Notes: a model not told the origin generated them from the sequence alone. DNA of 64,000 nucleotides from Liolophura sinensis (GCF_032854445.1 NC_088295.1:28692498-28756497); one strand, 5' to 3'; numbered from the stretch's first letter, positions 16,767-45,852 are shown. Made by a program: numbers and translations.

Positions 16767-17086
16767 TTACATAATAAATCCCAACATCTGTGCTGCTGCT
16801 TCTTCCCAGTTACTCCCCAGTTCCAACTGAGAATAAAGTAAAACGTGATCTTTATCCACCTTCAACACAAACTTCCCTGCCAGCAAGATGGAATCTGTAA
16901 ACTTTTGACACTTTGGATGTCCTTTCAAGGCAGCTGAGAGTTTCTTCAATATGGCAGCCAAAGACAGCTCCTCCAGGAATTGGGATCTTGTCACTGGAAA
17001 TGTTGTGGAGGTCAACAGATCCAGCAGCACTAGCAGAGCCATCATGGTCGCCAATACACACATGACCTTCTCACCAACCATTTTAC
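16767..17086 (-). CDS. PARP4: PARP4-like terminal exon (GKMVGEKVMCVLATMMALLVLLDLLTSTTFPVTRSQFLEELSLAAILKKLSAALKGHPKCQKFTDSILLAGKFVLKVDKDHVLLYSQLELGSNWEEAAAQMLGFIM*)
   Basis: acceptor ttaattcacag|GT joins leftover G of previous exon in frame; matches human MVP-interaction region GVKGRECLLDLIATMLVLQF...RLELGNDWDSATKQLLG; stop at 16767-16769. Confidence 0.6.
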
Positions 17087-17159
17087 CTGTGAATTAAAAC
17101 AAACCACTGTTACAATTAACAGTGAAAATACTGGATAAGGTATTTTCATATTAATCTCG

Positions 17160-17400
17160 TTTGTTATTTATTTATTTATTTGATTGGTGTATAATGCGGT
17201 TCTCAAGAATATTTTACTGGGAAGAAACAGAGCAGAACCCAGGGGAAACCCACGATCATCCCCAGGTTGCTGGCAGACCTTCCCAAATACGGCCGGAAAG
17301 GAAGCCAGTGAGAGCTGGACTTAAACTCACAGCTACTGTAATGGTGAAAGGCACCTGGGTCATTGCACCATGCTGGCATGCTAACCACCTCTAACCATGA
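17160..17400 (-). mobile_element. SINE family A copy
   Basis: tail, core and tRNA-like head in reverse orientation. Confidence 0.6.
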
Positions 17401-17439
17401 GATCAAATCATCAAAACAATATTTATGGTTCCTTGTAAC

Positions 17440-17570
17440 TAGCATTTTACTGATTTATTTATTTATTTCACTGGTGTTTTACACTGTATTCATGAATATA
17501 TCACTCATGTGATGGCAGGCGGCATTATGGTGGAAGGAAACCGGGTGGAGCAGTATTCAGGTTGGAGCTG
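17440..17570 (-). mobile_element. SINE family A, truncated
   Basis: tail plus core. Confidence 0.45.
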
Positions 17571-19007
17571 GAAAAGCTTAAAGTGAACATAAAGTCAAGC
17601 ACTAAAGCTAAATTAATTCATAACATAGTGTTCCACAAATGTTCAAAAAATATTTACAAAATTCTACACTGGTTATCAACAAAATAAATAGCAAACAATA
17701 GTCAGTACCTAGCCACACATTTGTTGACACCATTTTGCCATGTTATAGTTATCCAGAGTGACAAAACCTAGGAGCTCTCCCGTACCATCCATATGAAACA
17801 ATGTGACAAAGAGAAAACACAAACAAAAACGCCTGATACCCAACCAAAGAGTATCGACTCTGTTCTGTGTTCAAGGGGCCCATGTTTCTTTTGGTTTTGC
17901 ACTCTGTCAGGGCGATGTTTGTGGACACAAGAGTCATGTTTCAGCGATTTTGCTTGTCCTCCTCCTGCATGGGTGTAAGCATTTGGCCTAGCTGATTGTA
18001 CCGACAGGGAATTACTGAACATAGCAGGACCTTCTGACTGATAACAGACCCTTTCATTCAGATTTTGGGAAGATATTTTCGTAATAAATCAGACTTTGCT
18101 AAGGATAAACAATGCAAAGTCATAATATTTTTCTTCAAACAATGACTCTCCCAAGGCAGTTTTCTTGCCAGCTCACCCTGACAAGTTAATGCAGTATGCT
18201 GCCAAACATGGGCATAAATGTGTGGTTCAAAATCCATCAGTTTAACGCTTAGACTAACTCCAAAATCCAATTTATTGCAATGACATCTGCCTATCCACTA
18301 GAAAAACCATACTGACAATCGAGATCTAATAGGTTTTTTGACGCGACCCTCAATTATCACATGACTCTTTCAGCGCTAGTTATTGGCCAAGTTCATAAGG
18401 GTTTCTACAAATGGCTATTCGGTGTGAATTGTACGTCAGTACCATATCCCCAATGTTGAACTCCATCTTCTCGACTTTCACAACTTAACAGAATTTTTTT
18501 ACATATTTTTCTGTAATAACTGTGACCTACATCATTTTTTCTATGTATTTATTGTGACAAACTTTATGTTCACTTTAAAGGCTTTCAGGGATATGGAAAC
18601 AAAGGAGGGCAGCTAACTCCACTCTATTATTAAAGGCAGATGGGTTTTGGTCTTTGCATTAGGGACATATGATGAATGAGGTGGTTGGCTTGCTTTGTCT
18701 GTATAACTGGTATTTCCTGAGATGAAATACATATTAAAGTGAAGCGTCCAAACATGTAAAACTTGTAATTGTAGTTTACATTTATATTTTTATATGGCTT
18801 ATTAATTTTCCATCTAAAAATGTTCAAAGAGTACATTATACTGTACATGCATGTATATACTAATGTGTTCTTACAAATGCTGCTACATGCATATCTACAC
18901 AGGTTAATCTGAAAAACTCATCTAAAAGGAAACATGGAAAACAATACAGAATCACTTTTTACCTCAAAGAACAATACAACTAATATAATGCAGAAACATT
19001 TCCATAC

Positions 19008-19107
19008 CCAGAGACTTCAATCCTGCTTCATTTAACAAGCTGACACACAAATCCTTGTCCACAGCAATCAGATCATTCACTTCTTCACTGAACTCCCAAT
19101 GTCCAGA
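19008..19107 (-). CDS. PARP4: PARP4-like C-terminal exon (SGHWEFSEEVNDLIAVDKDLCVSLLNEAGLKSL)
   Basis: acceptor ctcttctcctctcag, donor TGG|GTATGG; matches human DGFWKLTPELGLILNLNTNGLHSFLKQKGIQSL. Confidence 0.6.
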
Positions 19108-19892
19108 CTGAGAGGAGAAGAGTATTAAAAAAGTGTAGAAATATTCAGAGCTGCAGAAGCAAATGAATCCTATACATATACATCAAATCAGCAAATTTTC
19201 TTTCCATTTTGTGAGCATTTTAAGGTACTTTACACATGACATAAGATATCACACAAAGCATACTCCTCACAGTGATAGTGATTGCACTGATGCATGTTCC
19301 CATGTCCTCGTTTTTTTTTTTTTATTATTAACTTACAAAACAGGTCCCTCTTTCACAAAACTTCGTAAATCAGTTTTCGTAACTTTTTCTGTAAAAGATG
19401 TTGCTTTTAAGTGAAATCATTTACAAGAAAATTTTCGATAAACTGATAATGAAGTTTTGTCACAGGGGACCCAAGATCATAAAGTCCAACGTCAATATAA
19501 TACCACACTAGTTATACACAAATTACATCTGTCACACAAATTACAGGCTGCTACCTGCAACCATTAAGGACTTAATTAACCATTACGTATGATTACTTTA
19601 ATTCATACAGACAGACACGCAGACAGACATACTACACATCTACAGCATACCAAAGACAACAGGCAAGTTTGGTTTTCGTTCAAGAAACCACTGCAAAAGA
19701 TTCTTTTATTGCTGAGTACTGATGGGAAACAAAGAGGCTGACAAACACTTACATGTATGAAACTTTACAGATTAAAAGTTTTAGACACGAATTAGTGTTT
19801 AGCATTATCACGACACAAGTTCCTGACTCAACGAAAATCCTAATAAAATTTCTTTCACATGAACCTGTGCTTGTTATACAGTCTGAGTATGG

Positions 19893-20550
19893 CTCTATCC
19901 TTTTCATATCTGTCTTGTATCCTCTACTGACAGATATCAACAACATGAAGACAGGGGTGAGACAACCACTGACTGGATGAAAGCTGGATCTGTCTTGTAT
20001 CCTCTACTGACAGATATCAACAACATCAAGACAGGGGTGAGACAACCACTGACTGGATGAAAGCTGGATCTGTCTTGTATCCTCTACTGACAGATATCAA
20101 CAACACCAAGACAGGGGTGAGACAACCACTGACTGGATGAAAGCTGGATCTGTCTTGTATCCTCTACTGACAGATATCAACAACACCAAGACAGAAGTGA
20201 GACAACCACTGACTGGATGAAAGCTGGATCTGTCTTGTATCCTCTACTGACAGATATCAACAACACAAGGACAGAAGTGAGACAACCACTGACTGGATGA
20301 AAGCTGGATCTGTCTTGTATCCTCTACTGACAGATATCAACAACATGAAGACAGGGGTGAGACAACCACTGACTGGATGAAAGCTGGATCTGTCTTGTAT
20401 CCTCTACTGACAGATATCAACAACATCAAGACAGGGGTGAGACAACCACTGACTGGATGAAAGCTGGATCTGTCTTGTATCCTCTACTGACAGATATCAA
20501 CAACACCAAGACAGGGGTGAGACAACCACTGACTGGATGAAAGCTGGTTT
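19893..20550. repeat. 90-bp tandem repeat, about 7.3 copies (TCTGTCTTGTATCCTCTACTGACAGATATCAACAACATGAAGACAGGGGTGAGACAACCACTGACTGGATGAAAGCTGGA), in a PARP4-like intron
   Basis: near-identical units differing mainly at the CATGAAG/CATCAAG/CACCAAG position. Confidence 0.85.
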
Positions 20551-20983: not shown

Positions 20984-21105
20984 CTTTTTCTGGGCAGCAA
21001 AGAGTTTCTCTAAATTATGTTGAGACAAAGTTGGTGTTCCACATCTCACAATGAATCGTTTCTGACTCAAAATCTTTGTCTGACCACAATTTTCTGGAGG
21101 CCACG
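20984..21105 (-). CDS. PARP4: PARP4-like exon (AWPPENCGQTKILSQKRFIVRCGTPTLSQHNLEKLFAAQKK)
   Basis: acceptor cgtggtag, donor AAG|GTAAAA; phase consistent. Confidence 0.5.
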
Positions 21106-22049
21106 CTACCACGAATAAATAAAAAAAATAAATGTTGGTAATTGCAATATAAAGTGGGCCGTGGCCTGGGTCATTCAATCCCTAGGACACATATGGTGGG
21201 GATTCAAATCTGGCCTTAGAAATTTGTAGAATACCATGCTCTCACTTGTATGATTATTTGTCTAAGATACATTGAGGACCCTTGTCTTTAGTACATGTAC
21301 ATTGCAAATGGGAAAATTCATGAGTAACTTGAAAAGGGTTGGTGGTTTTCACTGGACACTTTGGTAGCCTCCACCTGTTAAGTTAACAATCATCATATAC
21401 TAGTAAATGCAAACTTCTCAGGCAGGGCACCAAACAAGAATAAAATAAATAAATGTAATATGGACCTGAAGAAGTGAAGGTGTAATAAACTTAGATACCC
21501 TGTTTAGGCTGCAAAAGGGTTAAATGTTAAATCACAGTCTGTGTTTAATTTTCAATGCCTTCAAAGGTTTACAATACATGTATGTAAAAGTTTGGCGTTT
21601 GCAATAAACTTTATATGGACTCTAGATTGATACTGTTCTTCTGTAAGGTCAGGACATTTACAAATTAGCAATGTGTAAAGTAGCATGTACAACTGCCTAA
21701 CACAGAGCTAGATACATGTAGCTTTCTGGTGGATAAGAGTTGAAAGTAAAAATATCTCCCCATTCAGGGATCAACAAAGTCATCGCAAAGGCCAAAGATA
21801 ATAATATGGCCACAGGATGTTAAACTTTCATCACAAAATTTAACCAGTACTTTAATAAACAGTACCAGCAAATTAGACAACTGTTCATAAAAAGTTAATC
21901 ATGAACTATCATACAAAGCACCATATCCATTTTGAGTCTCTGTTAAGATGACACAGGGAGTAAGATGTGCTGTTTTTTTCTTCAAAGTTTCCAGAAAAGG
22001 GGTAGTACAGACATACAAACATCTACTTGAATGCTCTTACCTGTATTAC

Positions 22050-22256
22050 CCGACATGTCAATCAGGTCCCCTATATCATCTAGAACTGACAACAGGTGCG
22101 AGGTTTCCTTTATTGACCACTGGTGACAGACAAACTCCCGCAGAGACTGCAGCTGATGGCCTTCCATGTTCAAGTTTTGTTTTGCCTGGAGAAGTCTTTT
22201 GGTCTGTTCCATTCTCTCAGCAAGGGATGTCAGGTCATGTTTTACGCCATGAAAAC
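22050..22256 (-). CDS. PARP4: PARP4-like exon (FHGVKHDLTSLAERMEQTKRLLQAKQNLNMEGHQLQSLREFVCHQWSIKETSHLLSVLDDIGDLIDMS); alternative donor 9 nt downstream at 22041
   Basis: acceptor ttgttacag; donors TCGG|GTAATA or ACAG|GTAAGA both keep phase. Confidence 0.5.
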
Positions 22257-22587
22257 CTGTAACAATCCGATACTACACATTTTTAATATATGTACATAAT
22301 ATAAAGAATTAGTGTAACCATCATTTATTAAAGTACATATATTTGTAACAGAATTACAATCTTGAAATTTGATGATAAAAAACATTAAGAATAAAAATTA
22401 AAGTATAATGCTAGTACCTTCCTTAACCCTTCAAAAAACAAGGAAATATTTAAAGGGGAAATCATGAAAGAAAACAAAACAAAAAGAGCGAAAACACATG
22501 GGATATATGTTGTACTGTTTGTATGCAGATATACTCTTAGGAGCTGTATCTACAACATAGAATGATTTTGACTTTCAAAAACCCTAC

Positions 22588-24673
22588 CTGTAGAGAGTGA
22601 AGCACCTGACAACATGGCCTCAAAGGCATGGAGGTATTCCACCAGTTTGACATAATCCCACTGTTCCTGTATCACATTCTCAAGGCCTCTTCTATTTGTC
22701 TGTTCACTGGTTTCCACCACAGACTCAAATATACCACTTCTTTTAGTGGTCCTTGATTGACAGCTCTTCAGAGTTTTCCCCAATGATCTAGCTCGTAGTG
22801 TGTTGGATTTCCAAGTATTTGCATGATTTTGTCTGTAGCGACCATCAACCTCTTTTGGCAATTTTAACTTTGAGGGATGCAGTATAGGTCTGGTTCGTGA
22901 ACCATGGCTTAGAAATGGGACATGATGTGACAAACTTTTCTGTGGCACACTGTTGGGATGTGCAATATTGCTCCCAAAGCCTTGACCAAAAGTTTGTCCA
23001 GAATGAGTGTTGTTATTGTTATTATGTAGTTTGCCTCTGCCATTAAAAGTAAAATCTGTCAGAGTAGTGAACTGAGCTCTTCCAGCAGCCCTACCTACAT
23101 CAAAATTTTTAGTTGAAACATTTCCAAAACCAAATGATTGTGCAGGAGCACTGCCAAAACCAGATGTTTGTGCAGGAGCACTGCCAAAACCAGATGTTTG
23201 TGCAGGAGCACGGCCAAAACTAAATGGTTGTGCAGGAGCACTACCAGAACCAGGTGTTTGTGCAGAAGCACTTCCAAAACCAGATGTTTGTGCAGGAGCA
23301 CGGCCAAAACTAAATGATTGTGCAGGAACACTGCCAAAACCAGATGTTTGTGCAGTAGCACTGCCAAAACTAAATGGTTGTGCAGGAACACTGCTAAAAC
23401 CAAATGTCTGAGAAGAACTGCCAAAACCAGATGTTTGTACAGGGGCACTGCCAGAACCTGATGTTTGTGCAGGAGCACTACCAGAACCAGATGTTTGTGC
23501 AGGAGCACTACCAGAACCAGATGTTTGCGCAACAGCACTGCCAAAGCCAGATGTTTGCACAGGAGCACAGCCAGAACCAGATGTTTGTGCAGGAGCACTG
23601 CCTAAACTGGTTGTCTCAGTCAAACTGTTGGAAATCTGAGCATGATCATTAGCAAATTTGCCCATCTTTGCAGGACTGCTTGCACTTGAAACAGGGGTCC
23701 TATCAGAACTGGTTGCACTACTGCCAAAAGAAAAAGGCTTGCCAGAAGAAGCATTAGAACTGATATGAATAGTACTAAGACTATCAATACCACCAGATAA
23801 AGCATTAACAGAACTCATAGACTTAGCAGGAGTACTAGAGGATCTGGCAGTTGTACAGGGAGCACTATCAACGCCAGAAGGCTTGGCCAAAGAACTACTG
23901 AAATGCACAGATGGACAGGAAGTCTTTTCAAAATTTAAAGGCTTAGTCCCAGTGGTAGAGCTGGTAATGAAAGTGGGACTGCTCCCACAGCTAGTCGTTG
24001 TAGAGGGAGTAATATCAACACTAGAAGTCTCAGAAGCAGAACTGGTCTGTGCTAACTTGTTTCCAAACAGGCTTTGAGAACTTCGTATGGTGTTAGATTG
24101 TGTTACATTGTTGCCAAACAGGCTATGAGAGGGCTGTATGGTGTTAGGCTGTGTTACTTGGTTGCCAAACAGGCTTTGAGAGGGCTGTAGGGTGTTAGAT
24201 TGTGAGAGGCTTTGAGAGGGTGGTATGGTGTTGTGCTGTGTTGCTATTTTACCAAACAAACTTTGAGAAGGCTGTGCTTGTACATTGAGTTGTGCTGCTT
24301 TGCTGCCAAACAAACTTTGTGAAGGCTGTACATTGTTAAGCTGTGTTAATTTGTTCTCACACAAAGTTTTATGCAAATATCCACTCTTGGAAAAGAAATC
24401 TGAGTTAGTTCCACAGAGCCCTCTGGAAAACTGAGATGTGCTACCCTCAGATAAACTCTGATTTACAGGATATGTTGGTTTGCAAGTCAACACATCTTGG
24501 GAAGGCTTCTTTTGTTGCAAATGCTTGCTTAAATATCTAGCATTTGATGGTGTAAAATTGTGCATTTTCTTCTGCGAATATCTGTGCTGACTATCAGATA
24601 ACTGTGACTGTTCCTCTGAAGATTCACAATGGTTTTGTGAAGAAGTATCTAAGTCAGATGACTGATCTTCTAT
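22588..24673 (-). CDS. PARP4: PARP4-like large low-complexity exon (about 695 codons). It has SQSLFG-type and SGSAPAQTSGFG-type tandem peptide repeats rich in Ser/Thr/Gln. It is an internal exon that ends at an ACAG|GTAGGG donor, not at the ORF stop.
   Basis: acceptor tgtttatttcag|ATAGAAGAT. Open frame of 2086 nt. Leftover-1 phase joins the next exon in frame. The underlying 36-bp DNA repeat is at 23100-23620. Confidence 0.65.
23100..23620 (-). repeat. Coding minisatellite inside the PARP4-like large exon. The unit is ~36 bp (CCAGATGTTTGTGCAGGAGCACTGCCAAAA on the plus strand) and encodes SGSAPAQTSGFG-type repeats, about 14 copies.
   Basis: periodic 36-bp unit; an open frame is maintained on both strands, and the antisense ORF 23095..23598 is an artefact. 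Confidence 0.7.
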
Positions 24674-24976
24674 CTGAAATAAACACAAAGCAAAAGCACA
24701 TTCTTACACTTGCACATTAACATATTTCTGCAAACAAATGTTCTAACAAACTCATAAGTAATCTTAAGAATGAAAAGTTTGATTTAACTGACAATATCCA
24801 TGTAGCATCAATATTATCTGATTGTCTATGCATCAATCAACAAGAGTTGAATCTATTCTTGTAGCATGTCTATAGAAACATTGAATAAGCCTTTACTTCA
24901 ATTTACGATCCATCCCTCTGCATAAAAGTAAAAATCGCTGGAAACCTTAATTACCCAATGAATTAACAGTACCAAC

Positions 24977-25099
24977 CTCATCAGTGGCTGCATCACCACT
25001 CCTGTTTTCCTCCACTGCAACAAAGCTGGTAAGTGGACACAGGACGTTAAACTCTTTACTCAGCTGTACTATTCTCTCTGTCTTGGAAAACTTCAACAT
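24977..25099 (-). CDS. PARP4: PARP4-like exon (MLKFSKTERIVQLSKEFNVLCPLTSFVAVEENRSGDAATDE)
   Basis: 123 nt; acceptor ttgcttgcag, donor GAG|GTTGGT; TSFVAVEEN matches human TSFVAVEKRDENE. Confidence 0.6.
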
Positions 25100-25739
25100 C
25101 TGCAAGCAAAATGTGTGAGTTCATGTAACTATAATCCTTTATCTACTTCTCATCTTCCTAACGCTTTCTGTTCTGTCACAACATATGTTGCACCTTATGG
25201 ATAAGTTTTCAACAAAGAATATCACACTTTAATGTTTGCAGCACTGCCATGGGAACTTTGTACATAACTTACATATATTTCCATCAAATATTCCAGTGAG
25301 TTTCAAACATGTACAAAATCTTGTTTATCATCTGAGTCACCAGAGTACTTCAGCAACAATGTTTTAGCAAACTGGATTATGGAGATATAAAACTCCTTTT
25401 GAAAAATACCCTTAGGACTGCTGGACAATTAGGAGATCAGCTCACCTCATGAAGTGTATGATCTGTGTGCAGTATACCATACTGCCAATCCCTGATCAAG
25501 GCATGCGCAGTCAGGCTGTGGAGAATCTGTGGATATACAAAAAGCAGGAGAAACAGCCATATGAGTCACCTACTGTAAACTTCTCCTATATCAGTGATGT
25601 TGATAAACTTTACCACATATCACATTACTGCATTCTTTAACAATGCAGTCCCACATGACACATCCAGACACTTTACATGCACTGTAGCGAAATGAAGCGA
25701 CATACTTAACAATATATAAGTTTGTGTCACTCATGCCAT

Positions 25740-26035
25740 TTGGCTGTAATAAACACTTCTTTATTTATTTGATTAGTATATCACGCTGTGTTCAAGAATA
25801 TTTCACTTACACGAAAGAGGCCAGCATTATGGCCGGAGGAAACCGAGAAGAGCCTGAGGGAAACTGACGACCATCTGCGGGTTGCTAGAAGACCTTCCCA
25901 CCTACAGCCAGTGAGGAAGCCAACCTGAGCTGGACTTAAACTTACAGCAACTGCATTGGTCAGAGGCTCCTGGGTCATTGTGCCGTTCTGGCGTGGTAAC
26001 CACCTCGGCCACAGGGGCCCGCCATAATAAATAAA
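25740..26035 (-). mobile_element. SINE family A, full copy
   Basis: tail ttatttatttgattagt..., core gccagcattatggccggagg, tRNA-like head at 25950-26030. Confidence 0.7.
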
Positions 26036-26263
26036 TCTGAGTCAATTTTTAATACAAGACAAAATATCAATATATTTATTTATCTACATATGTTTACTAT
26101 ATATGACAAAAATGTACATAAAACCTGAGCTGTGTAGTACATATTGTTTCCTCTGTGACACACATATCAGATTTACAACATTTACATATATCCTATAGGA
26201 CACTGTTTTCTATGTGATATGGATTAGGTGGTGACATTTATACCTAATTAATGTGACACTTAC

Positions 26264-26343
26264 TGTTCCCTCTGTGACACACAGATCAGGTGTTGACACC
26301 ACAGTGGACACCTCTTCTCCATTCATACGGCCATTCAAATATG
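26264..26343 (-). CDS. candidate PARP4-like exon (AYLNGRMNGEEVSTVVSTPDLCVTEGT)
   Basis: acceptor cattttaaag, donor ACA|GTAAGT; weak similarity only; intervening exons not found. Confidence 0.2.
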
Positions 26344-26499
26344 CCTTTAAAATGAGAAAAAAATTGTCTGGTGGCTGTAATTCCACTTGTTTGATTGCTG
26401 TTTTACAATGTTCACAATATGACAACTCTATTTTATTTGTTTTATTGATATGTATGTATGTATGCTTGGGGTTTAATGACCTACTTAATTTTTCAGTCG

Positions 26500-27329: not shown

Positions 27330-29005
27330 TTACCAACATCTTGGAGAACAGCAGGACTTTGTTCAGGGAAGACAGTGTCACTTACCACAGTACAGTTCTG
27401 AACAAAGCCATACACGACATCTGGACCCAGGGTAAAGGTTTTGGAGAACAGCGGGACTTTGTTCAGGGAAGGCAGTGTCACTTACCACAGTACAGTTCTG
27501 AACAAAGCCATACACGACACATCTGGAGCCCAGGTACAGGTTTTGGAGAACAGCAGGACATCGTTCAGGGAAGGCAGTGTCACTTACCACAGTACAGTTC
27601 TGAACAAAGCCATACACGACACATCTGGATCCAGAGTAAAGGTTCTGGAAAACAGCGGGAATTTGGGAAGGGAGTGTCACTTACCACAGTACAGTTCTGA
27701 ACAAAGCCATACACGACACATCTGGATCCAGAGTAAAGGTTCTGAAGAACAGCGGGACTTTGTTCAGGGAAGGCAGTGTCACTTACCACAGTACAGTTCT
27801 GAACAAAGCCATACACGACACATCTGGATCCAGAGTAAAGGTTCTGAAGAACAGCGGGACTTTGTTCAGGGAAGGCAGTGTCACTTACCACAGTACAGTT
27901 CTGAACAAAGCCATATACGACCCATTTGGATCCAGAGTAAAGGCTTTGGAGAACAGCAGGACATCGTTCAGGGAAGGCAGTGTCACTTACCACAGTACAG
28001 TTCTGAACAAAGCCATACACGACACATCTTGACCCAGAGTAAAGGTTCTGGAGAACAGCGGGACTTTGTTCAGGGAAGAGAGTCTCACTTACCACAGTAC
28101 AGTTCTGAACAAAGCCATACACGACACATCTGGACCCGGGGTAAAGGTTCTGGAAAACAGCGGGAATTTGGGAAGGGAGTGTCACTTACCACAGTACAGT
28201 TCTGAACAAAGCCATACACGACACATCTGGACCTGGGGTAAAGGTTTTGGTGAACAGCGGGACTTTGTTCAGGGAAGGCAGTGTCACTTACCACAGTAAG
28301 AGTTCTGAACAAAGCCATACACGACACATCTGGATCCAGAGTAATGGTTCTGGAGAACAGCGGGACTTTGTTCAGGGAAGGCAGTGTCACTTACCACAGT
28401 ACAGTTCTGAACAAAGCCATACACGACACATCTGGACAGGAATAAAGGTTCTGGAGAACAGCGGGACTTTGTGCAGGGAAGGCAGTGTCACTTACCACAG
28501 TACAGTTCTGAACAAAGCCATACACGACACATCTGGACCCAGAGTAAAGGTTCTGGAGAACAGCGGGACTTTGTTCAGGGAAGAGAGTCTCACTTACCAC
28601 AGTACAGTTCTGAACAAAGCCATACACGACACATCTGGAGCCAGGGTACAGGTTTTGGTGAACAGCAGGGCATCGTTCAGGGAAGGGAGTGTCACTTACC
28701 ACAGTACAGTTCTGAACAAAGTCATACACGACACATCTGGATCCAGAGTAAAGGATCTGGAGAACAGCGGGACTTTGTGCAGGGAAGGCAGTGTCACTTA
28801 CCACAGTACAGTTTTGAACAAAGCCATACACGACACATCTGGATCCAGAGTAATGGTTCTGGAGAACAGCGGGACATCATTCAGGGAAGGGAGTGTCACT
28901 TACCACAGTACAGTTCTGAACAAAGTCATACACGACACATCTGGACCCAGGGTAAAGGTTTTGGTGAACAGCGGGACTTTGTTCAGGGAAGGCAGTGTCA
29001 CTTAC
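27330..29005 (-). repeat. Tandem array, about 16.4 copies of a 102-bp unit. The unit is the last 84 nt of the PARP4-like exon 29006-29176 plus the first 18 nt of the intron, including the GTAAGT donor. Each unit is 34 codons and keeps an open frame.
   Basis: unit (minus strand) CCTGAACAAAGTCCCGCTGTTCTCCAGAACCTTTACTCTGGATCCAGATGTGTCGTGTATGGCTTTGTTCAGAACTGTACTGTG|GTAAGTGACACTGCCTTC; the first copy is continuous with unique exon sequence. Confidence 0.8.
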
Positions 29006-29176
29006 CACAGTACAGTTTTGAATAAAGCCATACACGACACATCTGGATCCAGAGTAAAGGTTCTGGAGAACAGCGGGACTTTGTTCAGGGAAGGGAAGGT
29101 CAGGCTCAAACTGCTGCCATGTCATGGTTAGATTAGTGACACATGGGTTTGAAGCCTTCTTCAGCAACTCTGATAT
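29006..29176 (-). CDS. PARP4: PARP4-like exon (ISELLKKASNPCVTNLTMTWQQFEPDLPFPEQSPAVLQNLYSGSRCVVYGFIQNCTV) followed by GTAAGT donor; its 3' 84 nt plus 18 nt of intron is the unit of the downstream 102-bp tandem array
   Basis: 171 nt phase 0; acceptor ttgtttcaccag; matches human QIEDQMTRLCSPSCHSVSVKWQQLNPDVPEALQAPAQVPSLFLNDRLLVYGFIPHCT. Confidence 0.65.
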
Positions 29177-29799: not shown

Positions 29800-29899
29800 C
29801 TTTCTGTCCCATAAATCCCTCTCTCTGGGTTCAAACATTTCAAATAATCCACCTCCTTCTCGAGCTAGAGTGCACAAGAAGTGACTGTTGGTTCTGGAC
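29800..29899 (-). CDS. PARP4: PARP4-like exon (SRTNSHFLCTLAREGGGLFEMFEPRERDLWDRK)
   Basis: acceptor tttttggtag, donor AAG|GTTAGT; matches human ANRHVLRILSQCGAGVFEYFNAKSKHSWRK. Confidence 0.65.
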
Positions 29900-30363: not shown

Positions 30364-30551
30364 CCAACAGCCAAAGTAAATATCTGAACATGGTCATCAC
30401 TTTGGCTTGCTGCCATCTTGGCAACCGCTTGTCCGTTAACAAATCCATCTGTGATAAGGAAAACCGCTGTCCTCAGACTATCAGAAGATAGTCTGTTCAG
30501 TGTTGAAATAGCAGCCTTCAAAACGGTACAGTGGCCAGACGGCTTCAGGTT
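30364..30551 (-). CDS. PARP4: PARP4-like VWA domain exon (NLKPSGHCTVLKAAISTLNRLSSDSLRTAVFLITDGFVNGQAVAKMAASQSDDHVQIFTLAVG)
   Basis: acceptor accacag, donor GG|GTAGGG; classic VWA C-terminal motifs; in frame with next exon. Confidence 0.7.
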
Positions 30552-30771: not shown

Positions 30772-30860
30772 AAACTCTCAGCTGTGTGACAGCTCTTCTT
30801 TGGTGATACACAACTGGGGAGCACTTCACACAGCTCTACCATTGGAATGTTAAACACTAG
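30772..30860 (-). repeat. Degenerate tandem duplicate (~84 bp) of the PARP4-like ELCELF exon. This copy reads VELCEVLPSCVSPKKSCHTAESFI and lacks the GT donor.
   Basis: direct repeat of 30862-30950 with about 85% identity. Confidence 0.6.
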
Positions 30861-30874
30861 TTTACTCACACTCA

Positions 30875-30942
30875 CAAATCTCTCAGCTGTGTCACAATTC
30901 TCTTGAGTTGGTGATACACAACTGGGGAACAGCTCACACAGC
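30875..30942 (-). CDS. PARP4: PARP4-like exon (ELCELFPSCVSPTQENCDTAERF); upstream member of an 84-bp duplicated exon pair
   Basis: acceptor ggtag, donor TTT|GTGAGT; phase fits preceding leftover G; matches human KELFSYPKHITSN..AAEF. Confidence 0.5.
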
Positions 30943-31666
30943 TCTACCAATTGAATGAAAAACTTTAGTCATGACAAGATTCATCAGAAGAGTTTGACTT
31001 AAATCAAATACAATGTCTATCCACTACAAAAATTTCAGAATAGTCATGAAGGAATTTTTAGTGCCATATTTATGAAAACAAAGGCTAGTGAATTATATCA
31101 GAATAGTAAATGTGAATACCTCTTATGATGTACTCTGGTTAAATGATACATCTTAATATTACGAAGCCATTAAACTTAATCCAAATGCCAGAAGTTCACA
31201 GTGATAAGACTACCCAGATAATTCTAGGAATTGTTTTTCTCCTGAAAGTTGTTGCATTTGTTTCCACAAAATACTGTTCCAATGTTATCATTTTCTGACG
31301 GGTACAGCTGTCCCTTGTCTTTTCGATTTTTATGGCCTCATGTAGTTTCTTATCAAAAATTGCACAAAATTAAAACTTGTTGCCTTAAGGACAAGATGCA
31401 ATGGATTTTGATTACCATTATAACTGATGTGAAAGATTTCTTTTCTGTTAAGCTGTAATCACATGATATAATTGGAAGTAATGTCTTGCTGTGTTCATGG
31501 TGTGGGCTATTCCAGGCAGTACATATTAGTACAACAAACTAAAAAGGGGGTGTTTTTATAAACTGATATACTCTTTTCTTAACAGTTTACTCCTCAAACT
31601 GAGTAACAAAGCTACTACATACATGTTCATGAGAACATTAAAGCTAAGAACAAATTGATATTTCAC

Positions 31667-31846
31667 CATGTCCAAAGGTCACGATGTTGAATTTGCATGA
31701 CAGTTCTTTCAGGGCTATGTGTAGAAGACTCTTTGCATTCTCCAGAGGTTTCCCCGCCATGGATTTGGACACGTCTACCAGGAATATCACCTCTGTGCAC
31801 TCATTTTCTGCAGCAGGGTGGTCTGGGTAATAAGTCACCATACAGG
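31667..31846 (-). CDS. PARP4: PARP4-like VWA domain exon with MIDAS-like DVSKS (ACMVTYYPDHPAAENECTEVIFLVDVSKSMAGKPLENAKSLLHIALKELSCKFNIVTFGH)
   Basis: acceptor cctccag, donor G|GTGAAA; matches human ACMLVFQPD..VIICLDCSSSMEG. Confidence 0.65.
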
Positions 31847-32417
31847 CCTGGAGGAAGAAAAAAATGTCAATTTTAAGAAGAGTTAGGAACATCTAGGCAG
31901 AGTATGTGTATGTATGCACATCAAATTCTCATGTAATTCCCATGTACGTACTGGCGTAAATGTACCTGTGTAAGGTAGCATAACTTAACATAGCTACAGC
32001 ACAGTAGGGCTCCTTCTGTAAAGCTCTAATGGCAGTCAAATGCCTGGATATAATGAAATCTCCACATCAAGGGACATCACTCTGATTGTCTTAATTTGTT
32101 TCAATGGGGTTTACCATGGCTTTCAACATTACACTCAAACTGTAGTCAAGGTTTCTCCCTATCTCTGTCGTATAAGTGAAATATTCTTGAGTACAGTGGA
32201 AAACACCAATCAAATAAATAAATAAATAAGTAAGATGCAGTCAAGGATTACATTAATGTCAGATGCGACATTTAACAATGTCAAATGAGTAACCTTCATA
32301 CCGAACGGCTTCTGTGGAATTTCCAAACTTACAGGAAGTTTTAAAATTTATAATTAATTTATCAATGACTAAAAAGCTAACAGATATGTCAGTGAGAAGA
32401 CAGTTTTACAGTTGTAC

Positions 32418-32555
32418 CTGGTGCCACGGTTGATCTGGGTGACGCTCTACCCACATTCTGGGTAAATGAATCTCAGAGAAACCAATGAGAAGTTGGAAGC
32501 ATTTCGTCAACTGCTGATTCCTGTCCATTTTTATCGTTGCCTTTGTTGCTGTTCT
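32418..32555 (-). CDS. PARP4: PARP4-like exon (RTATKATIKMDRNQQLTKCFQLLIGFSEIHLPRMWVERHPDQPWHQ)
   Basis: 138 nt; acceptor tttttag, donor CAG|GTACAA; HLPRMWVERHP matches human YLPRMWVEKHP. Confidence 0.6.
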
Positions 32556-32946: not shown

Positions 32947-33054
32947 CTCTATCTTTACTGTGTGAGTCTCACATTTCAGCGTGGTGATGTCAAAGGGCAT
33001 CTCTATGGAAACATCCACAGAACAGTCACATGACTGAATAGCACCAAGTGTGCC
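32947..33054 (-). CDS. PARP4: PARP4-like exon (GTLGAIQSCDCSVDVSIEMPFDITTLKCETHTVKIE)
   Basis: 108 nt; acceptor tttttcacag, donor GAG|GTATCT; SIEMPF matches human SIEMPY. Confidence 0.55.
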
Positions 33055-36102: not shown

Positions 36103-36237
36103 CTGGTCATGTGCCTCCAGCTCTGGAAGCCTGAAGCTGATACAATCCATCAACAATGGCAATTCACACACATAAGTCACTTTAACAACCACCGAGTCAT
36201 GTGGTTTTAAATTTCCAACCTTCATGGTGAACACCTC
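36103..36237 (-). CDS. PARP4: PARP4-like VIT domain exon (EVFTMKVGNLKPHDSVVVKVTYVCELPLLMDCISFRLPELEAHDQ)
   Basis: 135 nt; acceptor tatag, donor CAG|GTGAGA; matches human DVFTVSVGNLPP..ITYITEL. Confidence 0.65.
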
Positions 36238-36704: not shown

Positions 36705-36965
36705 CGCCTCCGTGGCCTAGGTGGCTAGTAAGCCAGCACAGTGCAATGACCCAGAAGCCTCTCACCAATGCAGTTGCTGTGAGTTCAAGTCGAGCTCATA
36801 CTGGCTTTCTCTCCAGCCATACGCAGAAAGGTCTGCAGCAACCTGCAGATGGCCATGGGTTTCCCTCGCGCTCTGCCCGGTTTCTTCAAACCCTAATGCT
36901 GGCTGCCGTCATATAAATGAAATATTCTTGAGTACGCGGTTAAACACCAATCAAATAAATAAATA
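36705..36965 (+). mobile_element. SINE family A, full copy
   Basis: ggcgcctccgtggcctaggtggctagtaagccagc... head, tail (aaata)n; ORFs 36467..36966 are artefacts. Confidence 0.7.
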
Positions 36966-37393: not shown

Positions 37394-37618
37394 CTGGTTT
37401 GTAGTACTCTGTTCCAGTAAACAGGCTCCCTGTCCTTCTTCTATAGCTTCATTGTATATCTGGTGAGCAGCTTTAACTTCCTCAATCTTCCCGTAGATGC
37501 GCTGGTCATTGATAACTGCCTCAAACCCTGTGATGGCACACAACTCATCCACAGGGAAATGATACTGACCTTGGATTGTCTCATTGCTGTCATTGATGTA
37601 AGTTTGAATTAAGTTGAC
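37394..37618 (-). CDS. PARP4: PARP4-like VIT domain exon (VNLIQTYINDSNETIQGQYHFPVDELCAITGFEAVINDQRIYGKIEEVKAAHQIYNEAIEEGQGACLLEQSTTNQ)
   Basis: 225 nt, acceptor cactgttcag, donor CAG|GTACGA; canonical VIT motif pattern. Confidence 0.7.
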
Positions 37619-38055: not shown

Positions 38056-38177
38056 CTCGGCTATCATGTCCATTACTTTTGCTTGAACAGCAATAGAACA
38101 CACAGGAAGGTAGTTTGAGTTGTCTCCCCCTTTTGACACCCCGACTCTCCACTGTTCATGTCTTGTTTTAAGGTCAT
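38056..38177 (-). CDS. PARP4: PARP4-like exon, start of VIT domain (..DDLKTRHEQWRVGVSKGGDNSNYLPVCSIAVQAKVMDMIAE)
   Basis: acceptor ctttctggacag, donor GAG|GTAAAG; continues into VIT exon. Confidence 0.55.
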
Positions 38178-38861: not shown

Positions 38862-39087
38862 CTTCTTCAGATGAAGTGCTACTCCTCCTCTGCTGCTTGA
38901 CAGCATTCATGGAATAGTCCCCTACAGTTCTGAAATAATTCCTGAGTAATAATCCGTGATCAGCAGGGGCAGATATCGTACTCAGGCTGCCAACCTCATC
39001 CATATCCTCAAGTAACCTCTGTACAGCCTCAGAGCCATCACAACCTCCATGCAGGACAAGTTCTACCAAATAAACTGAACCCTGTGC
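38862..39087 (-). CDS. PARP4: PARP4-like exon (AQGSVYLVELVLHGGCDGSEAVQRLLEDMDEVGSLSTISAPADHGLLLRNYFRTVGDYSMNAVKQQRRSSTSSEE)
   Basis: acceptor cccctttcag, donor GAAG|GTATTC; long open frame. Confidence 0.45.
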
Positions 39088-39652: not shown

Positions 39653-39734
39653 CTTGTCTTCTGTAGATGCTTCACTAACAAACACAAACTGAGTTTTGCG
39701 CACAGTACTGATTTCCCAGCATTCCTCAGTTAAC
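39653..39734 (-). CDS. PARP4: PARP4-like exon (LTEECWEISTVRKTQFVFVSEASTEDK)
   Basis: acceptor ctattcag, donor AAG|GTAAAT; open frame. Confidence 0.4.
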
Positions 39735-40277: not shown

Positions 40278-40349
40278 CTTTCATCAGACTTGTTAACACC
40301 TTGCCTGCTCAAACACAATCCTGACATTAGCGCTCGTTCAGAGAGATCG
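40278..40349 (-). CDS. PARP4: PARP4-like candidate catalytic-domain exon (..DLSERALMSGLCLSRQGVNKSDE; resembles PARP ILSQGLR/ILCRGLL motif)
   Basis: acceptor attttag, donor AAAG|GTATCT; weak motif similarity only. Confidence 0.3.
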
Positions 40350-41110: not shown

Positions 41111-41248
41111 CTGCATAAAATTGCCAGAATGAGATGTGCATTCACTGGGTAAAATGTATAGACAACCTCTGTGGGTAGATTCTCCAGGACATCCTCGCTG
41201 GAAAACTTCTGTATCAAATACATGCTTTTGATGTCTTTGATGTGGGCT
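41111..41248 (-). CDS. PARP4: PARP4-like exon 8 (AHIKDIKSMYLIQKFSSEDVLENLPTEVVYTFYPVNAHLILAILC); phase relative to exon 7 unresolved
   Basis: acceptor ttaaacag, donor CAG|GTATGA. The protein-like frame is offset by 1 from the exon-7 phase. A mini-exon, an alternative site or an indel is unaccounted for. Confidence 0.4.
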
Positions 41249-42177
41249 CTGTTTAAAAAATAAAACATAACTTCTTCTCTGTGCCTCATTCACTTGGATG
41301 GTCCAAACTAAAAACAAAAATTTCCTAAGTGTTTTCAGAAATTTGCAAAGTGCTTTGGTTTATACAAGTGATATCCATTTATAATGTCATTATCACCAAC
41401 AATCGGATTTAAACTGGATGCTGTTAAATGGCAGAAGTTAGCTGCAGTTTACACAAAATGTGAACTCATTTGGCTGACTGCATCTAATAGATAAGACCTA
41501 GAAATGTATGAGGAAAATTCAAATAAGCATTTCAGTTTCTTTACCTTCACAGTTCTAACATTTCTAAAGAGGTTATGCTCTAGTGCGGAATTTAAATGTA
41601 GAAACCTAGCACCATGAGTTACCTGGAACGTACAGACTGTTCATTGTTTTGGAAACATTTACTTTTCTTTTCATCATGAACTTTTCCACTCTAAAATGCA
41701 ACGAAACTCTTTTAACCTACTTATTTACAAACCTGGAGTGGAGAGCAGACTCCACCTGTCTAAATCTTTGGGTGTGTGGTTTTAAGGGACAAAACCTCCA
41801 TCTGAAAGATAGGCCCAAGTCCCAAGGGTTCAGGTTTTCAGAAAAACTTTCTGACAGAGAAAGAGTTCCCCTGATAAACTGTAACAGGATACAACATACA
41901 AATATGAATAAATCCCTGAATCTGTTTGCATGTTTAGACCATCGTTACCTTTCCATATCATAACAAACTTCTCTTTCTAAACAAAACGGTAATCTTTATG
42001 AAGCCATTGTAACTAACCCAGCCATGCCAGTTAGTTGTAAGAAAAACTCTTTTTATGTCAAGCATAAAGCTATAAAATTGTTTTCAATAGAAAACAAGTT
42101 ACCAGATGTGAAACTTAATCCACCACTACGCAGGTATATTTGTAATAAAACTTAAATTTCCATGATGTTACACGTAC

Positions 42178-42354
42178 ATGGCAGAGATCTTGTTTCTGGG
42201 CTATGATGGCCTGTGTGTCCACTGTGAACTGATGTGCTGGAGAATGGGGCAAAGCTTGGTAAAATGAGGTGGACAAGAATTCTACTTTGTTTCTATCACT
42301 TTCTTCCTGCAGCTCTTCTCTCAGAAGTTCCAAAATTCCCATAGCTTTTACAAC
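42178..42354 (-). CDS. PARP4: PARP4-like exon 7 (VVKAMGILELLREELQEESDRNKVEFLSTSFYQALPHSPAHQFTVDTQAIIAQKQDLCH)
   Basis: acceptor tatcag, donor CAT|GTACGT; matches human EGILLLVKAAL...EFYRLIPH...KKADLCQ. Confidence 0.6.
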
Positions 42355-42548
42355 CTGATAATGATATGAATAAAAAACCTACTATAAAAGAACAAGAAAT
42401 ATTTAATACTGGTTCTAGAACTGCTCCTGGTGGATCATTATAGATGTATATATGTAGTTTTCAAAGATTCATCCAATATTTTCCTGAATTAAAGGAGAAT
42501 TTGAGTCCACTGAATAAAGTGAAATTTGCAGATTGTCAGAAAACTTAC

Positions 42549-42671
42549 TTTTTCCAATGTGATATTTTTAAGCTCTGTGGCAACATGATTCCTGATACAC
42601 AGCCAACTTTCCTTCCACAGGTCTTCTATAATATCTACACCTTCTACTGTTGACAACTTAGGGTTCAACCT
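42549..42671 (-). CDS. PARP4: PARP4-like exon 6 (PARP regulatory helical region RLNPKLSTVEGVDIIEDLWKESWLCIRNHVATELKNITLEK)
   Basis: acceptor tttgtag, donor AAA|GTAAGT; 123 nt. Confidence 0.6.
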
Positions 42672-43024
42672 CTACAAAGAAATGAAATGCAAAATGAATG
42701 TAATGTTAGATGTGTGTTTCCCTCGAAGTATGTTCTCTTTCCCCCTACCACTGTCGTATGAGTTAAACATTCTTGAGTATGGCTTAAAATACTAATCAAG
42801 TAAGTCAATACATAAATAATGTTAGATGCATGTTTGACTGGGGTGTAGGCCTAAAGAGAAACTTAAAGCTATGTATAGTCATATTCTCATCTTTTTTTTA
42901 ATCTCAGTCCATAGTAAGTTCTTGTACATACATATACAACTGCACCCAGATACTTATACATGGCATACAAACAGAAACATGGAATGCTTGCCTCTTTCAG
43001 TATAGTGGATCCACAAGGAGATAC

Positions 43025-43147
43025 TTTGGTTTGTTCTATGTTGTAGTTTGCGGAAGAGATCAATTTCTCATAAAGCCAGGTGTACACATTCATAGCCTCA
43101 ACCAGTGTGGGGAAATGACGATATCTGATCACAGTATTTTTTCCATT
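43025..43147 (-). CDS. PARP4: PARP4-like exon 5 (NGKNTVIRYRHFPTLVEAMNVYTWLYEKLISSANYNIEQTK)
   Basis: acceptor tttccag, donor AAA|GTATCT; 123 nt phase 0. Confidence 0.55.
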
Positions 43148-43612
43148 CTGGAAATCCAAATAAAAAATTATTTAATTGTCTGCATTATTTGTTATTTTTA
43201 TACATCAGGTATGCATGAACACAGGGCTGAAATTACAAATCAGAAGTGAATATAACATGAGCAACTTTTCTAACATTTCTTCAATTCACCGATCCTTTAC
43301 ACTGCACAGTATTTACTGAAACACTGATTGGCTGAACAGTTGTCACAGGAGTTTATCATTAAGATCTCACTTTCCAATGAGGATACAGATTAATACATTA
43401 CGAGGGAAAGCCTCTATTTAGTTGACTGAATGACAGCATGTTGTTCAACAACAATCAAGAATCTTTCATGTAATTCTTGAGTATGATGTTGGTGAGCGTT
43501 GTGAGGGGACAAATCAGGTGTACAGGGTGATAATCATCCAACCTGAATTATATGGTTATTCTGAGGGAACATCTGAATAAATCACAGGAATTTGCTCGCT
43601 TTGCTAACTTAC

Positions 43613-43744
43613 CCAAGATGCATCATCGTGAATCTCTTCACTAGAATAAACACGGAATTCAGAACTCTGAGATCCCTGGTTGCAATCTTTGGGCACATGA
43701 AGTTCCAAAACTTGAAACAGCTGATGGCCTTTCTTGTCCATTTT
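43613..43744 (-). CDS. PARP4: PARP4-like exon 4 (KMDKKGHQLFQVLELHVPKDCNQGSQSSEFRVYSSEEIHDDASW)
   Basis: acceptor ctcttcag, donor TGG|GTAAGT; 132 nt phase 0. Confidence 0.6.
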
Positions 43745-44120
43745 CTGAAGAGCACCAAAACAAAACTTCAGTACACCAAAAATAAGAGCAAAAGTTAAAA
43801 TCAACAGTGACAAAGTGATGGGATTGTAAGAAATCTTACTGCTCACGAAATCTAGGAAACTGCTCCAACCCATGCAGTAGTAAGCTGCAAGTCTGCTGTC
43901 CATGTCATAAATGAACAATGAGCCTTATGATCTACACATATGGGTTCTTGCTGGCTTAATTCCTCCACTAAAACATTCCTCTCATCACAGCAAATCAGCC
44001 CTTGACCAATGAGGTTACAAGTTCATATCCAGCTTCAGTAGTAAATCGACATAACATGCCACAACTAAACCTGTCATATTAAGAGAGCGTGACTGACTGA
44101 AATGATCTGCATACACTTAC

Positions 44121-44269
44121 TGGCAGGACACAGAACTTGAGCACCTCATACTGATTGTAATCATCATCAGCCTCATCCAGAACGTCGCCAGAATCCCACA
44201 ACTCAGCATCATCCAGGTCCGTAAAGTCTTTCTCCACCATACACTCCTTTTCTTCAGTTTCTGTCTGGA
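44121..44269 (-). CDS. PARP4: PARP4-like exon 3 (acidic linker VQTETEEKECMVEKDFTDLDDAELWDSGDVLDEADDDYNQYEVLKFCVLP)
   Basis: acceptor ttcatag, donor CCA|GTAAGT; in frame. Confidence 0.55.
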
Positions 44270-44574
44270 CTATGAACAGTAAGACGTTCTTTTTCAAGTG
44301 ACATATGTCCAAGAAAATAACTGCATACCAAGTAGTTAACATGCACATAACATGTAAAACTATAACATTTAACTTTAACTCTTCAACATCTTCTAACAAC
44401 TTTGCATTTCTGGTAGGTCCAGGAAATTCACAATTATAATGTACATAATTAAAAAAACAGAATGACTTCTTCATGCATGTGAGAAGATGTCACCAGTATT
44501 CAGTATGGTTGGGTTACATGTCTATGTTTCCTTTGCCTTGTCCTTAATCATACAATGCTTTACAGTTTTGTTAA

Positions 44575-44990
44575 AACATGTTCAACATACACACGCACTG
44601 TCATGCACCATAATCCGTGACCTAAAGCACCATAATCTATGACCTCACGCACCACAATCCATGACCTCATGCACCACAATCCGTGACCTCATGCACCATA
44701 ATCCGTGATCTCATGCACCACAATCCCTGACCTCATGCACCACAATCCCTGACATCATGCACCGTTATCCTTCACCTCATGCACCATAATCCGCGACCTC
44801 ATGCACCACAATCCCTGACATCATGCACCGTTATCCTTCACCTTATGCACCACAATCCATGACCTCATGCACCATAATCTGTGACCTCATGCACCACAAT
44901 CCCTGACCTCATGCACCACAATCCCTGACATCATGCACCGTTATCCTTCACCTCATGCACCATAATCCCTGACCTCATGCTCTGTTGCCT
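44575..44990. repeat. 22-bp minisatellite, about 19 copies (GCACCACAATCCCTGACCTCAT) with a 66-bp higher-order variant (..GCACCGTTATCCTTCACCTCAT), in PARP4-like intron 2
   Basis: direct reading. Confidence 0.85.
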
Positions 44991-45126
44991 GACATTATTG
45001 TCATCATCCATAACAATCACTGGTGCTATGGTTAGGAAGTGATGATATTCAATGAGTTAAACACCCGTACGATCTTTCAATCTCATATGAAAGTCTGTGT
45101 TTATGTACAAGGCATGTCACTTATAC

Positions 45127-45310
45127 CTGTATCATTTGTAGCAATCTGATATTTCTTGACGAGATACTTTTTAATGTCTTCTAGATTTCCATATTGCATA
45201 CTGTTTAGAATGTAGCTGACAGTCACCACTGGAACTCTGAACGTCTGTGCCTGGTGTAGTTTGTAAGAGTCTGGTGTGTGATCTTTCCCAGCTATCACCA
45301 AGCATGATGT
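45127..45310 (-). CDS. PARP4: PARP4-like exon 2 (BRCT: TSCLVIAGKDHTPDSYKLHQAQTFRVPVVTVSYILNSMQYGNLEDIKKYLVKKYQIATNDT)
   Basis: acceptor tgtgttccag, donor ACAG|GTATAA; phase continuous with exon 1 and exon 3. Confidence 0.6.
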
Positions 45311-45725
45311 CTGGAACACAGAATAAGATATATATTTCACACCTCTTTTTCTCACATCGCTGGCCACAATATGGCGGAAAAATCATCGATGTAGAATCCT
45401 TCTGCTATACATGTAACCATTTGTTTCATTTATGCAGCGTATACAAGTTCCCATATTCCTAAAAATACTGGTCCCTGGGTTAATGTCTACAATGACTAAA
45501 AACATGAACACAGAGAAATTCAAATCAAGAGTATACAGATACTTCTCACATTTGTGTAGGGAGCTGGTAAAGGCTGAATGATTATTGGGCCTCCTTTTTG
45601 AATAGCTCGGTAAAATCTGGGCCTGCACAGTTTCAAGATTCCTATGCTTCCCGTGATTTTTAGGTGTTGTGGGCAGGAAGTGATCGGCACTACTGCTATG
45701 CAGGTATGGAAATCAGTAGATATAC

Positions 45726-45852
45726 CTGTTTTGTGACAGCATAGGTGATATCACCTCCTCTGTCTTGGACCAGCTGTTTCAGATGATCTTTCTCTCGTAT
45801 TGTAGCTGTGAGCTCCCAGTCCAATGCAAAGCTTAGGTTCTTGAACATCTTC
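45726..45852 (-). CDS. PARP4: PARP4-like exon 1 (ATG; BRCT N-terminus MKMFKNLSFALDWELTATIREKDHLKQLVQDRGGDITYAVTKQ)
   Basis: ATG preceded by in-frame TAG; donor CAG|GTATAT; BRCT-like pattern. Confidence 0.55.

Follow-up and report, generated by a model that had tools for sequence, protein, structure and literature searches.

A PARP4-like gene of the chiton Liolophura sinensis with an FG-rich linker exon, a MINT-like C-terminus and no recognisable ADP-ribosyltransferase domain

PARP4, the vault PARP, is the only minor component of the vault with known enzymatic activity (PMC12280208). In the human protein, the C-terminal domain through which PARP4 binds the major vault protein (MVP) has been described both as MINT (residues 1562-1724; PMC12280208) and as MVPID (residues 1570-1724; PMC10450202), and its MVP contacts are S1614, K1618, and R1689 (PMC12280208). 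Here we compare human PARP4 and its relatives with a locus of Liolophura sinensis, a chiton whose chromosome-level PacBio HiFi assembly originally appeared under the name L. japonica (PMC11068029; correction PMC12441733). The window, that is, the whole stretch of DNA analyzed, comprises 64,000 nucleotides (GCF_032854445.1 NC_088295.1:28692498-28756497), has a G+C content of ~38-40%, and contains no N. The locus is likely to be a single minus-strand PARP4-like gene, which is already public as XP_064611003.1. Its exon structure and domain homologies are clear, and no ADP-ribosyltransferase (ART) sequence can be detected in it. We tentatively propose that chiton PARP4 is a fast-evolving pseudoenzyme, in which the BRCT-WGR-helical regulatory domain (HD), VIT-VWA, and MINT modules were kept alongside an FG-rich linker and the ART fold was lost.

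The gene runs from an ATG at 45854-45852 to a TAA at 16769-16767 on the minus strand, ~29 kb in all, and stop-free minus-strand segments between 45.9 and 16.8 kb encode BRCT, VIT, VWA, and C-terminal peptides arranged in N-to-C order. A full HMMER search with the 75-amino-acid (aa) VIT exon (exon 14) recovered XP_064611003.1 (P0003 in our set), the RefSeq "protein mono-ADP-ribosyltransferase PARP4-like" of L. sinensis (2150 aa), with 100% identity across the exon. When this protein was threaded on the window, 31 exons (45854-16770, followed by the TAA) were joined with consistent phases throughout, and the translation was identical to the protein (100% identity). All but one of the 30 introns are GT-AG; the exception, at the exon 5 donor, is GC-AG. 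The initial annotation had placed a vault-PARP gene of ~29 kb at 16767-45852. It gave no strand; with the gene on the minus strand its coordinates fit, falling 2 nt short at the ATG. Its count of at least 28 exons agrees with the 31 of RefSeq (30 if the doubtful exon 23 is left out), and the consensus AG/GT joins with consistent phases that it reported are borne out for the phases and for all introns except that after exon 5. As its exons match those of XP_064611003.1, its model equals the public one. The features of the gene are given below, with E-values from orthologue-derived hidden Markov models (HMMs).

Exon 1, 45726..45854, minus strand: aa 1-43; first half of BRCT; BRCT HMM E=2.3e-9
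Exon 2, 45127..45310, minus strand: aa 44-104; second half of BRCT; HMM E=4.5e-10
Exon 3, 44121..44269, minus strand: aa 105-154; acidic linker, then the first part of the WGR-like domain
Exon 4, 43613..43744, minus strand: aa 155-198; WGR-like; HMM E=1.6e-4
Exon 5, 42992..43147, minus strand: aa 199-250; WGR-like; GC donor (AGAG|gcaagc), the sole non-GT donor
Exon 6, 42549..42671, minus strand: aa 251-291; HD; HMM E=8.5e-4
Exon 7, 42178..42354, minus strand: aa 292-350; HD core; HMM E=9e-13
Exon 8, 41733..41878, minus strand: aa 351-398; end of HD
Exon 9, 41111..41248, minus strand: aa 399-444; position of ART start; FYP against FHxS of the family; hhalign E=0.11, non-significant
Exon 10, 40278..40349, minus strand: aa 445-468; ART position, without ART similarity
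Exon 11, 39653..39734, minus strand: aa 469-496; ART position, without ART similarity
Exon 12, 38862..39087, minus strand: aa 497-571; ART position; resembles neither ART nor any Pfam or PDB entry
Exon 13, 38056..38177, minus strand: aa 572-612; start of VIT; HMM E=2e-3
Exon 14, 37394..37618, minus strand: aa 613-687; VIT core; HMM E=6.7e-28
Exon 15, 36103..36237, minus strand: aa 688-732; end of VIT; HMM E=3.6e-11
Exon 16, 32947..33054, minus strand: aa 733-768; ITIH-like middle region; HMM E=9.6e-9
Exon 17, 32418..32555, minus strand: aa 769-814; motif HLPRMWVERHP; HMM E=9.5e-18
Exon 18, 31667..31847, minus strand: aa 815-874; VWA with the metal-ion-dependent adhesion site (MIDAS) motif DVSKS; HMM E=3.7e-17
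Exon 19, 30870..30943, minus strand: aa 875-899; VWA
Exon 20, 30364..30551, minus strand: aa 900-961; VWA; HMM E=1.1e-6
Exon 21, 29800..29899, minus strand: aa 962-995; end of VWA; HMM E=1.5e-5
Exon 22, 29006..29176, minus strand: aa 996-1052; ends in ...VVYGFIQNCTV|GTAAGT; the tandem array originated from its 3' end
Tandem array, 27342..29094, minus strand: 102 bp x 17.3 copies, 90% matches
Exon 23 (RefSeq), 28292..28406, minus strand: aa 1053-1090; one array unit; no orthologue counterpart; doubtful
Exon 24, 26264..26397, minus strand: aa 1091-1135; orthologue homology limited to 26344-26264
Exon 25, 25446..25526, minus strand: aa 1136-1162; HMM E=1.2e-8
Exon 26, 24977..25099, minus strand: aa 1163-1203; motif TSFVAVE; HMM E=1.6e-10
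Exon 27, 22588..24673, minus strand: 2086 nt, aa 1204-1898; low-complexity linker; donor ACAG|GTAGGG
Exon 28, 22041..22256, minus strand: aa 1899-1970; phase 1 at both ends
Exon 29, 20984..21105, minus strand: aa 1971-2011; start of the MINT-like domain
Exon 30, 19008..19107, minus strand: aa 2012-2044; SGHWEF...GLKSL, part of MINT; HMM E=5.4e-6
Exon 31, 16767..17086, minus strand: aa 2045-2150 and the TAA at 16769-16767; MINT; HMM E=5.2e-10

The GC donor of exon 5 (42990-42992) is favored over nearby GT options because the conserved "GS..L" motif is kept only in this way. A second copy of the 5' part of exon 19, together with its acceptor region, lies 108 nt downstream (30800-30861 and 30908-30969, 62 nt, 85% identity) and has no obvious donor.

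The domain assignments come from several kinds of comparison. XP_064611003.1 was aligned with 53 long matches from the same HMMER search; the ones looked up, from oyster, scallop, mussels, snails, amphioxus, a crinoid, and a vertebrate, are PARP4 or PARP4-like. Per-domain HMMs were built from 39-53 orthologues, XP_064611003.1 excluded, and searched against the 3395 six-frame open segments of the window. They match the annotated minus-strand exons with E-values of 1e-3 to 7e-28, and nothing comparable was found elsewhere among the 3395 segments; this agreement is not due to chance. All domain HMMs except that of ART recover exons at the annotated places, including the WGR-like one (E=2e-4 and 0.03 in six frames; 43 bits on the spliced protein), and the exons following VWA are likewise matched in the six-frame search. 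In Pfam scans of XP_064611003.1, BRCT (E=3.1e-8, aa 2-80), VIT (E=1.9e-29), and VWA_3 (E=9.7e-17) are above threshold, and PARP_reg falls slightly short (19.8 bits; cut-off 26.8). HD is confirmed by the sequence of the human PARP4 HD-ART crystal construct (8sx1_A, E=1.8e-10, aa 246-404), the match being confined to the HD half, and by an orthologue HD profile (77 bits). The BRCT, PARP regulatory, VIT, and VWA domains named in the initial annotation are thus all present. The MIDAS of VWA is intact, with D839, S841, and S843 invariant in the alignment. Human PARP4 is by far the best match among PDB sequences (E=8.6e-102), in collinear stretches 3-404, 591-1053 (245 bits), 1116-1202, and 2004-2148. 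Judged from its sequence, the chiton protein is PARP4-like, with BRCT, WGR-like and HD, VIT-VWA with MIDAS, and MINT/MVPID.

The four exons that follow the long exon 27 complete the protein. A scan of donors, acceptors, and phases reproduces the four C-terminal joins of exons 27-31, and the in-frame continuation into four more exons that had been proposed is identical to that of XP_064611003.1. The peptide GLKSLG|KMVGEKVM... spans exons 30 and 31, and the peptide YSQLELGSNWEE, quoted earlier for this region, is found in exon 31. An orthologue profile of the C-terminus matches residues 1991-2147 of the spliced protein (73.2 bits, E=1.6e-24, hmm 13-154), in an alignment that crosses both the 29/30 and the 30/31 exon junction without a break. 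Among 23 C-termini aligned and curated, the invariant G61, T74, and W154 and the near-invariant residues are all present in the chiton. G61 corresponds to Gly2045; intron 30 interrupts its codon (G|GT), so that the conserved S-L-G motif exists only after the proposed splice. In the PDB, the 23-sequence profile finds human PARP4 1565-1718 (E=4.7e-53) and no other sequence. The single-sequence match of the chiton C-terminus to human PARP4 is weak (E=0.06), and the profile step therefore mattered. An AlphaFold2 (AF2) model made with the same alignment is all-helical, with a predicted local distance difference test (pLDDT) score of 89 and a predicted template modeling score (pTM) of 0.86. Compared with the PDB by Foldseek, the model has one meaningful match, 9bw6_B (E=0.018, prob 1.00, TM 0.52/0.63), which is PARP4 in the structure of the human vault-PARP4 complex; the remaining matches have E>1 and TM<0.3. 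Profile, PDB match, and fold match agree with the claim that the C-terminal exons reproduce the MVP-binding region of PARP4.

Exon 27 (24673-22588) is contained in an open reading frame (ORF) of 712 aa, 22550..24688(-). The last exon base at the donor tctctacag|gtagggt is 22588 and the TAG of the ORF occupies 22552-22550, 38 nt from the donor to the end of the stop, in line with the initial annotation. These coordinates support the view that the apparent stop is intronic and that the splice at ACAG|GTAGGG keeps the frame into the four C-terminal exons. The exon is built of SLFG and SGFG/FSFG repeats, with arrays of 30 bp x16 and 51 bp x3, and the 951-aa tail contains 20 FG dipeptides. The Pfam model Nucleoporin_FG (PF13634) scores 35.5 bits, above its cut-off of 32.2, and the warning that the ORF, read alone, could pass for an FG nucleoporin was therefore accurate. 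The repeat composition (SLFG, SGFG, FSFG) is indeed that of FG nucleoporins; unlike in these proteins, the repeats of the chiton form an internal exon of a PARP4-like gene without a domain for anchoring to the nuclear pore complex, and Pfam finds no nucleoporin anchoring domain in XP_064611003.1. At least one other PARP4 orthologue (P0088) has an FG-rich tail, so this feature is not unique to the chiton.

The one unexpected point, overlooked in the initial annotation, is that the ART catalytic domain is not recognizable. Residues 399-571 (exons 9-12, ~170 aa) occupy the place of ART in every orthologue. Pfam finds no PF00644 in XP_064611003.1 or in the X-masked frames of 38.7-42.1 kb, and a PDB search with the ART-position sequence and with the concatenated open segments of 38.7-42.1 kb gave no match. 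A PARP4-specific ART HMM (201-208 positions, 53 sequences, filters off) found only noise in the six frames of the 64-kb window, its best match (E=1.3) lying outside the gene, and had no match whatsoever in the spliced protein. With hhalign, the ART-position fragment aligned collinearly with a 19-sequence ART alignment over its first 55 residues, at a non-significant E=0.11, the F-H-x-S of the family being aligned with F-Y-P-V of the chiton. The catalytic triad is kept in the orthologues (H in 51/51, Y in 51/52, E in 52/53), and the corresponding chiton columns hold Y, a gap, and D. The other molluscs examined all retain LFHxS, GIYF, and DDE[FY]VVY. Exons guessed by eye at 41640-41452 and 40736-40662, as what might be left of the catalytic domain ("HGA...FYF"), are absent from the RefSeq model, have no profile support, and were rejected.

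Exons 9-12 themselves have good splice sites and an open frame, and the codon-usage score of each is above the 95th percentile for length-matched intronic segments that are free of stops and falls within the range of the homology-confirmed exons. The splice sites and coding-like codon usage imply that they are probably real coding exons, which would no longer encode a recognizable ART.

Compared with human PARP4 (PARP4_HUMAN; PDB 9bw6, 9bw7, 11jf, 8sx1), the chiton protein has the same order of BRCT, WGR-like, HD, VIT-VWA, disordered linker, and helical MINT/MVPID, and is longer (2150 aa against 1724 aa). It differs from the human protein in lacking a recognizable ART domain or H-Y-E triad, and in its linker, which is Pro/Ser-rich in human and carries FG-type repeats in the chiton. 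Molluscan PARP4-like proteins, such as those of Potamilus streckersoni (KAK3593675.1; P0081) and Magallana gigas (K1PUC2; P0048), have the same architecture but keep the three ART motifs. In the ITIH-like region, these proteins share 55-68% identity with one another and 37-40% with the chiton protein. The C-terminus of the Potamilus protein is strikingly similar to that of the chiton (QKEDGHWEF, AGLKSMG, LELGKSWEE). A MINT-like C-terminus is present in the Potamilus and chiton models and missing from those of oyster (P0048), scallop (P0005), Mytilus (P0054), and Biomphalaria (P0078); these four may be truncated after the linker exon, the pitfall described in the initial annotation.

Two further groups of proteins invite comparison. 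PARP13/ZAP and PARP9 are members of the PARP family that have lost the triad and act through their binding domains. They retain a recognizable ART fold and sequence, whereas even a family profile detects no ART in the chiton protein. Members of the VWA5A/ITIH family share the VIT-VWA block but lack BRCT, WGR, and HD, and the best match of the chiton protein is PARP4 (E=1e-102 against 1e-13 for ITIH). VWA5A also has an MVPID-like helical C-terminal domain (PMC10450202).

Other accounts of the locus were weighed against the reading of it as one PARP4-like gene with a putatively non-catalytic product. That the 712-aa ORF is a free-standing FG-nucleoporin-like gene, with the C-terminal exons in another transcript, is suggested by its length and openness and by its Nucleoporin_FG score. 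However, the ORF starts with TTG and has no upstream Met context, its strong acceptor (24673) and strong donor (22588) are in phase with exons 26 and 28, and PARP4-homologous exons flank it on both sides; in addition, MINT in the orthologues is the C-terminus of the same polypeptide, following a long disordered linker, and the protein has no nucleoporin anchoring domain. A gene of this kind is extremely improbable. It also appears very unlikely that the gene encodes a canonical, active PARP4 whose ART was merely missed or mis-spliced in annotation. Automated models can misplace small exons, and exon 23 of the RefSeq model is doubtful, but the ART HMM yields only noise across the same six frames in which its sister HMMs find every other domain. 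Moreover, the introns between exons 8 and 13 measure just 484-761 nt and the window is free of N, which leaves no room for hidden exons.

A third account is that the locus is a decaying or recently pseudogenized paralogue, with a canonical PARP4 elsewhere in the genome. Divergence is accelerated in every domain: in the ITIH-like region, the chiton protein is 37-40% identical to any other orthologue, whereas comparisons among those of oyster, scallop, mussel, snail, amphioxus, and crinoid give 54-68% identity, and the same long-branch pattern holds for HD and BRCT-WGR. The unrecognizable ART region and the exon-derived tandem array inside the gene point the same way. Against decay stand an unbroken frame of 2150 codons that crosses 30 introns at canonical splice sites, the retention of MIDAS, the VIT motifs, and the MINT invariant residues, and a coding-like codon bias even in exons 9-12. 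We regard this account as unlikely.

Several points weigh against the main reading or limit its reach. As a long branch, the chiton protein could be a diverging paralogue. Residues 399-571 may hold a very divergent, still folded ART-like domain, and single-sequence AF2 modeling of residues 250-600 is uninformative here (pLDDT 33). The case for exons 9-12 consists of splice sites, open frame, and codon bias, and that for the junctions in general of splice consensus, phase, homology, and the RefSeq model. As to vault docking, which is predicted from domain homology, only one of the three human MVP contacts is conserved: S1614 corresponds to S2043, but K1618 is aligned with Met (M2047), a Lys (K2046) lying one position earlier, and R1689 with Gln (Q2130). 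The MVP residues that touch PARP4 are reported to be conserved in vertebrates only (PMC12280208). The MVP gene of L. sinensis lies outside the window.

The chiton protein comprises, in order, BRCT, WGR-like, a PARP1-type HD, ~170 residues unlike ART, VIT-VWA with an intact MIDAS, a disordered FG-rich linker of ~700 residues encoded by the 2.1-kb exon, and the MINT/MVPID domain encoded by the last three exons. By analogy with the human structure, the MINT-like domain would dock the protein to the MVP repeat domains inside the vault. There it might act as a non-catalytic scaffold or adaptor, with BRCT/WGR available for nucleic acid, VIT-VWA for protein contacts, and the disordered FG-rich regions in addition. 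Because the NAD+-binding H-Y-E fold is not recognizable, we infer that the protein would have no ADP-ribosyltransferase activity.

The region between exons 22 and 24 is unusual. The array unit consists of the 3' end of exon 22 (...SGSRCVVYGFVQNCTV) and its GTAAGT donor, which places 17 near-identical strong donors in tandem. Reading frames are broken or drift between the copies. The array also creates cag| acceptor-like sites within the intron. The RefSeq model takes one array unit as exon 23 and opens exon 24 at 26397, where the acceptor is weak. Nothing in human PARP4 corresponds to the 62 residues that this adds (1096 runs straight into 1103), and they are absent from the orthologue profile (hmm 58 continues at 57). 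If exon 22 is instead spliced in phase 0 to 26344 (tttttttctcattttaaag|G), an acceptor whose pyrimidine tract is much better than that of 26397, the alignment is free of gaps. Exon 23 of RefSeq, which derives from the array, is therefore doubtful.

Other repeats and genes were noted in the window. Intron 29 contains a minisatellite of 80 bp x 8 (97% identity, 19908-20547) and intron 2 one of 22 bp x 17 (44601-44980). Related short motifs in translation, ...QEYFTY..., ...RKPGRARGKP..., and ...CCEFKSS..., are met repeatedly on either strand, in introns as well as flanks (~36790-36910, 25780-26050, 17200-17460, 16160-16450, and 60780-61134), which suggests copies of one interspersed repeat resembling a short interspersed nuclear element (SINE). 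Two tandem HSP70 copies, 57309-59250 (-) and 63037-64000 (-), share 99.2% identity across 995 nt. The complete copy changes frame near 58875 (...NGKP / QVEYKGEEK...), between its N-terminal ORF (59250-58858) and its main ORF (58844-57309), which could reflect an apparent frameshift or a very short intron. The interval that separates the PARP4-like gene from the HSP70 genes contains a Ser/Lys-rich ORF of 182 aa, 50822-51370 (+). PF26156, which may represent the C-terminal domain of PARP4, appears in the precomputed Pfam list for XP_064611003.1 and was not seen in our local Pfam scans of that protein.

As the gene model reproduces the existing RefSeq model, it is in itself of little consequence. 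The locus nevertheless illustrates well how exons can go unnoticed when they follow a long low-complexity exon whose frame runs on to an intronic stop. The apparent catalytic loss is of modest interest. If the pseudoenzyme proposal is true, a lineage has kept the scaffold and the MVP-docking domain while dropping the catalytic domain, so that PARP4 must have a non-enzymatic role, a non-catalytic function on which selection can act; MINT-mediated docking to the vault would then predate the vertebrates. A clear MINT domain in molluscs also bears on the suggestion that PARP4 entered vaults only in "higher order organisms" (PMC12280208).

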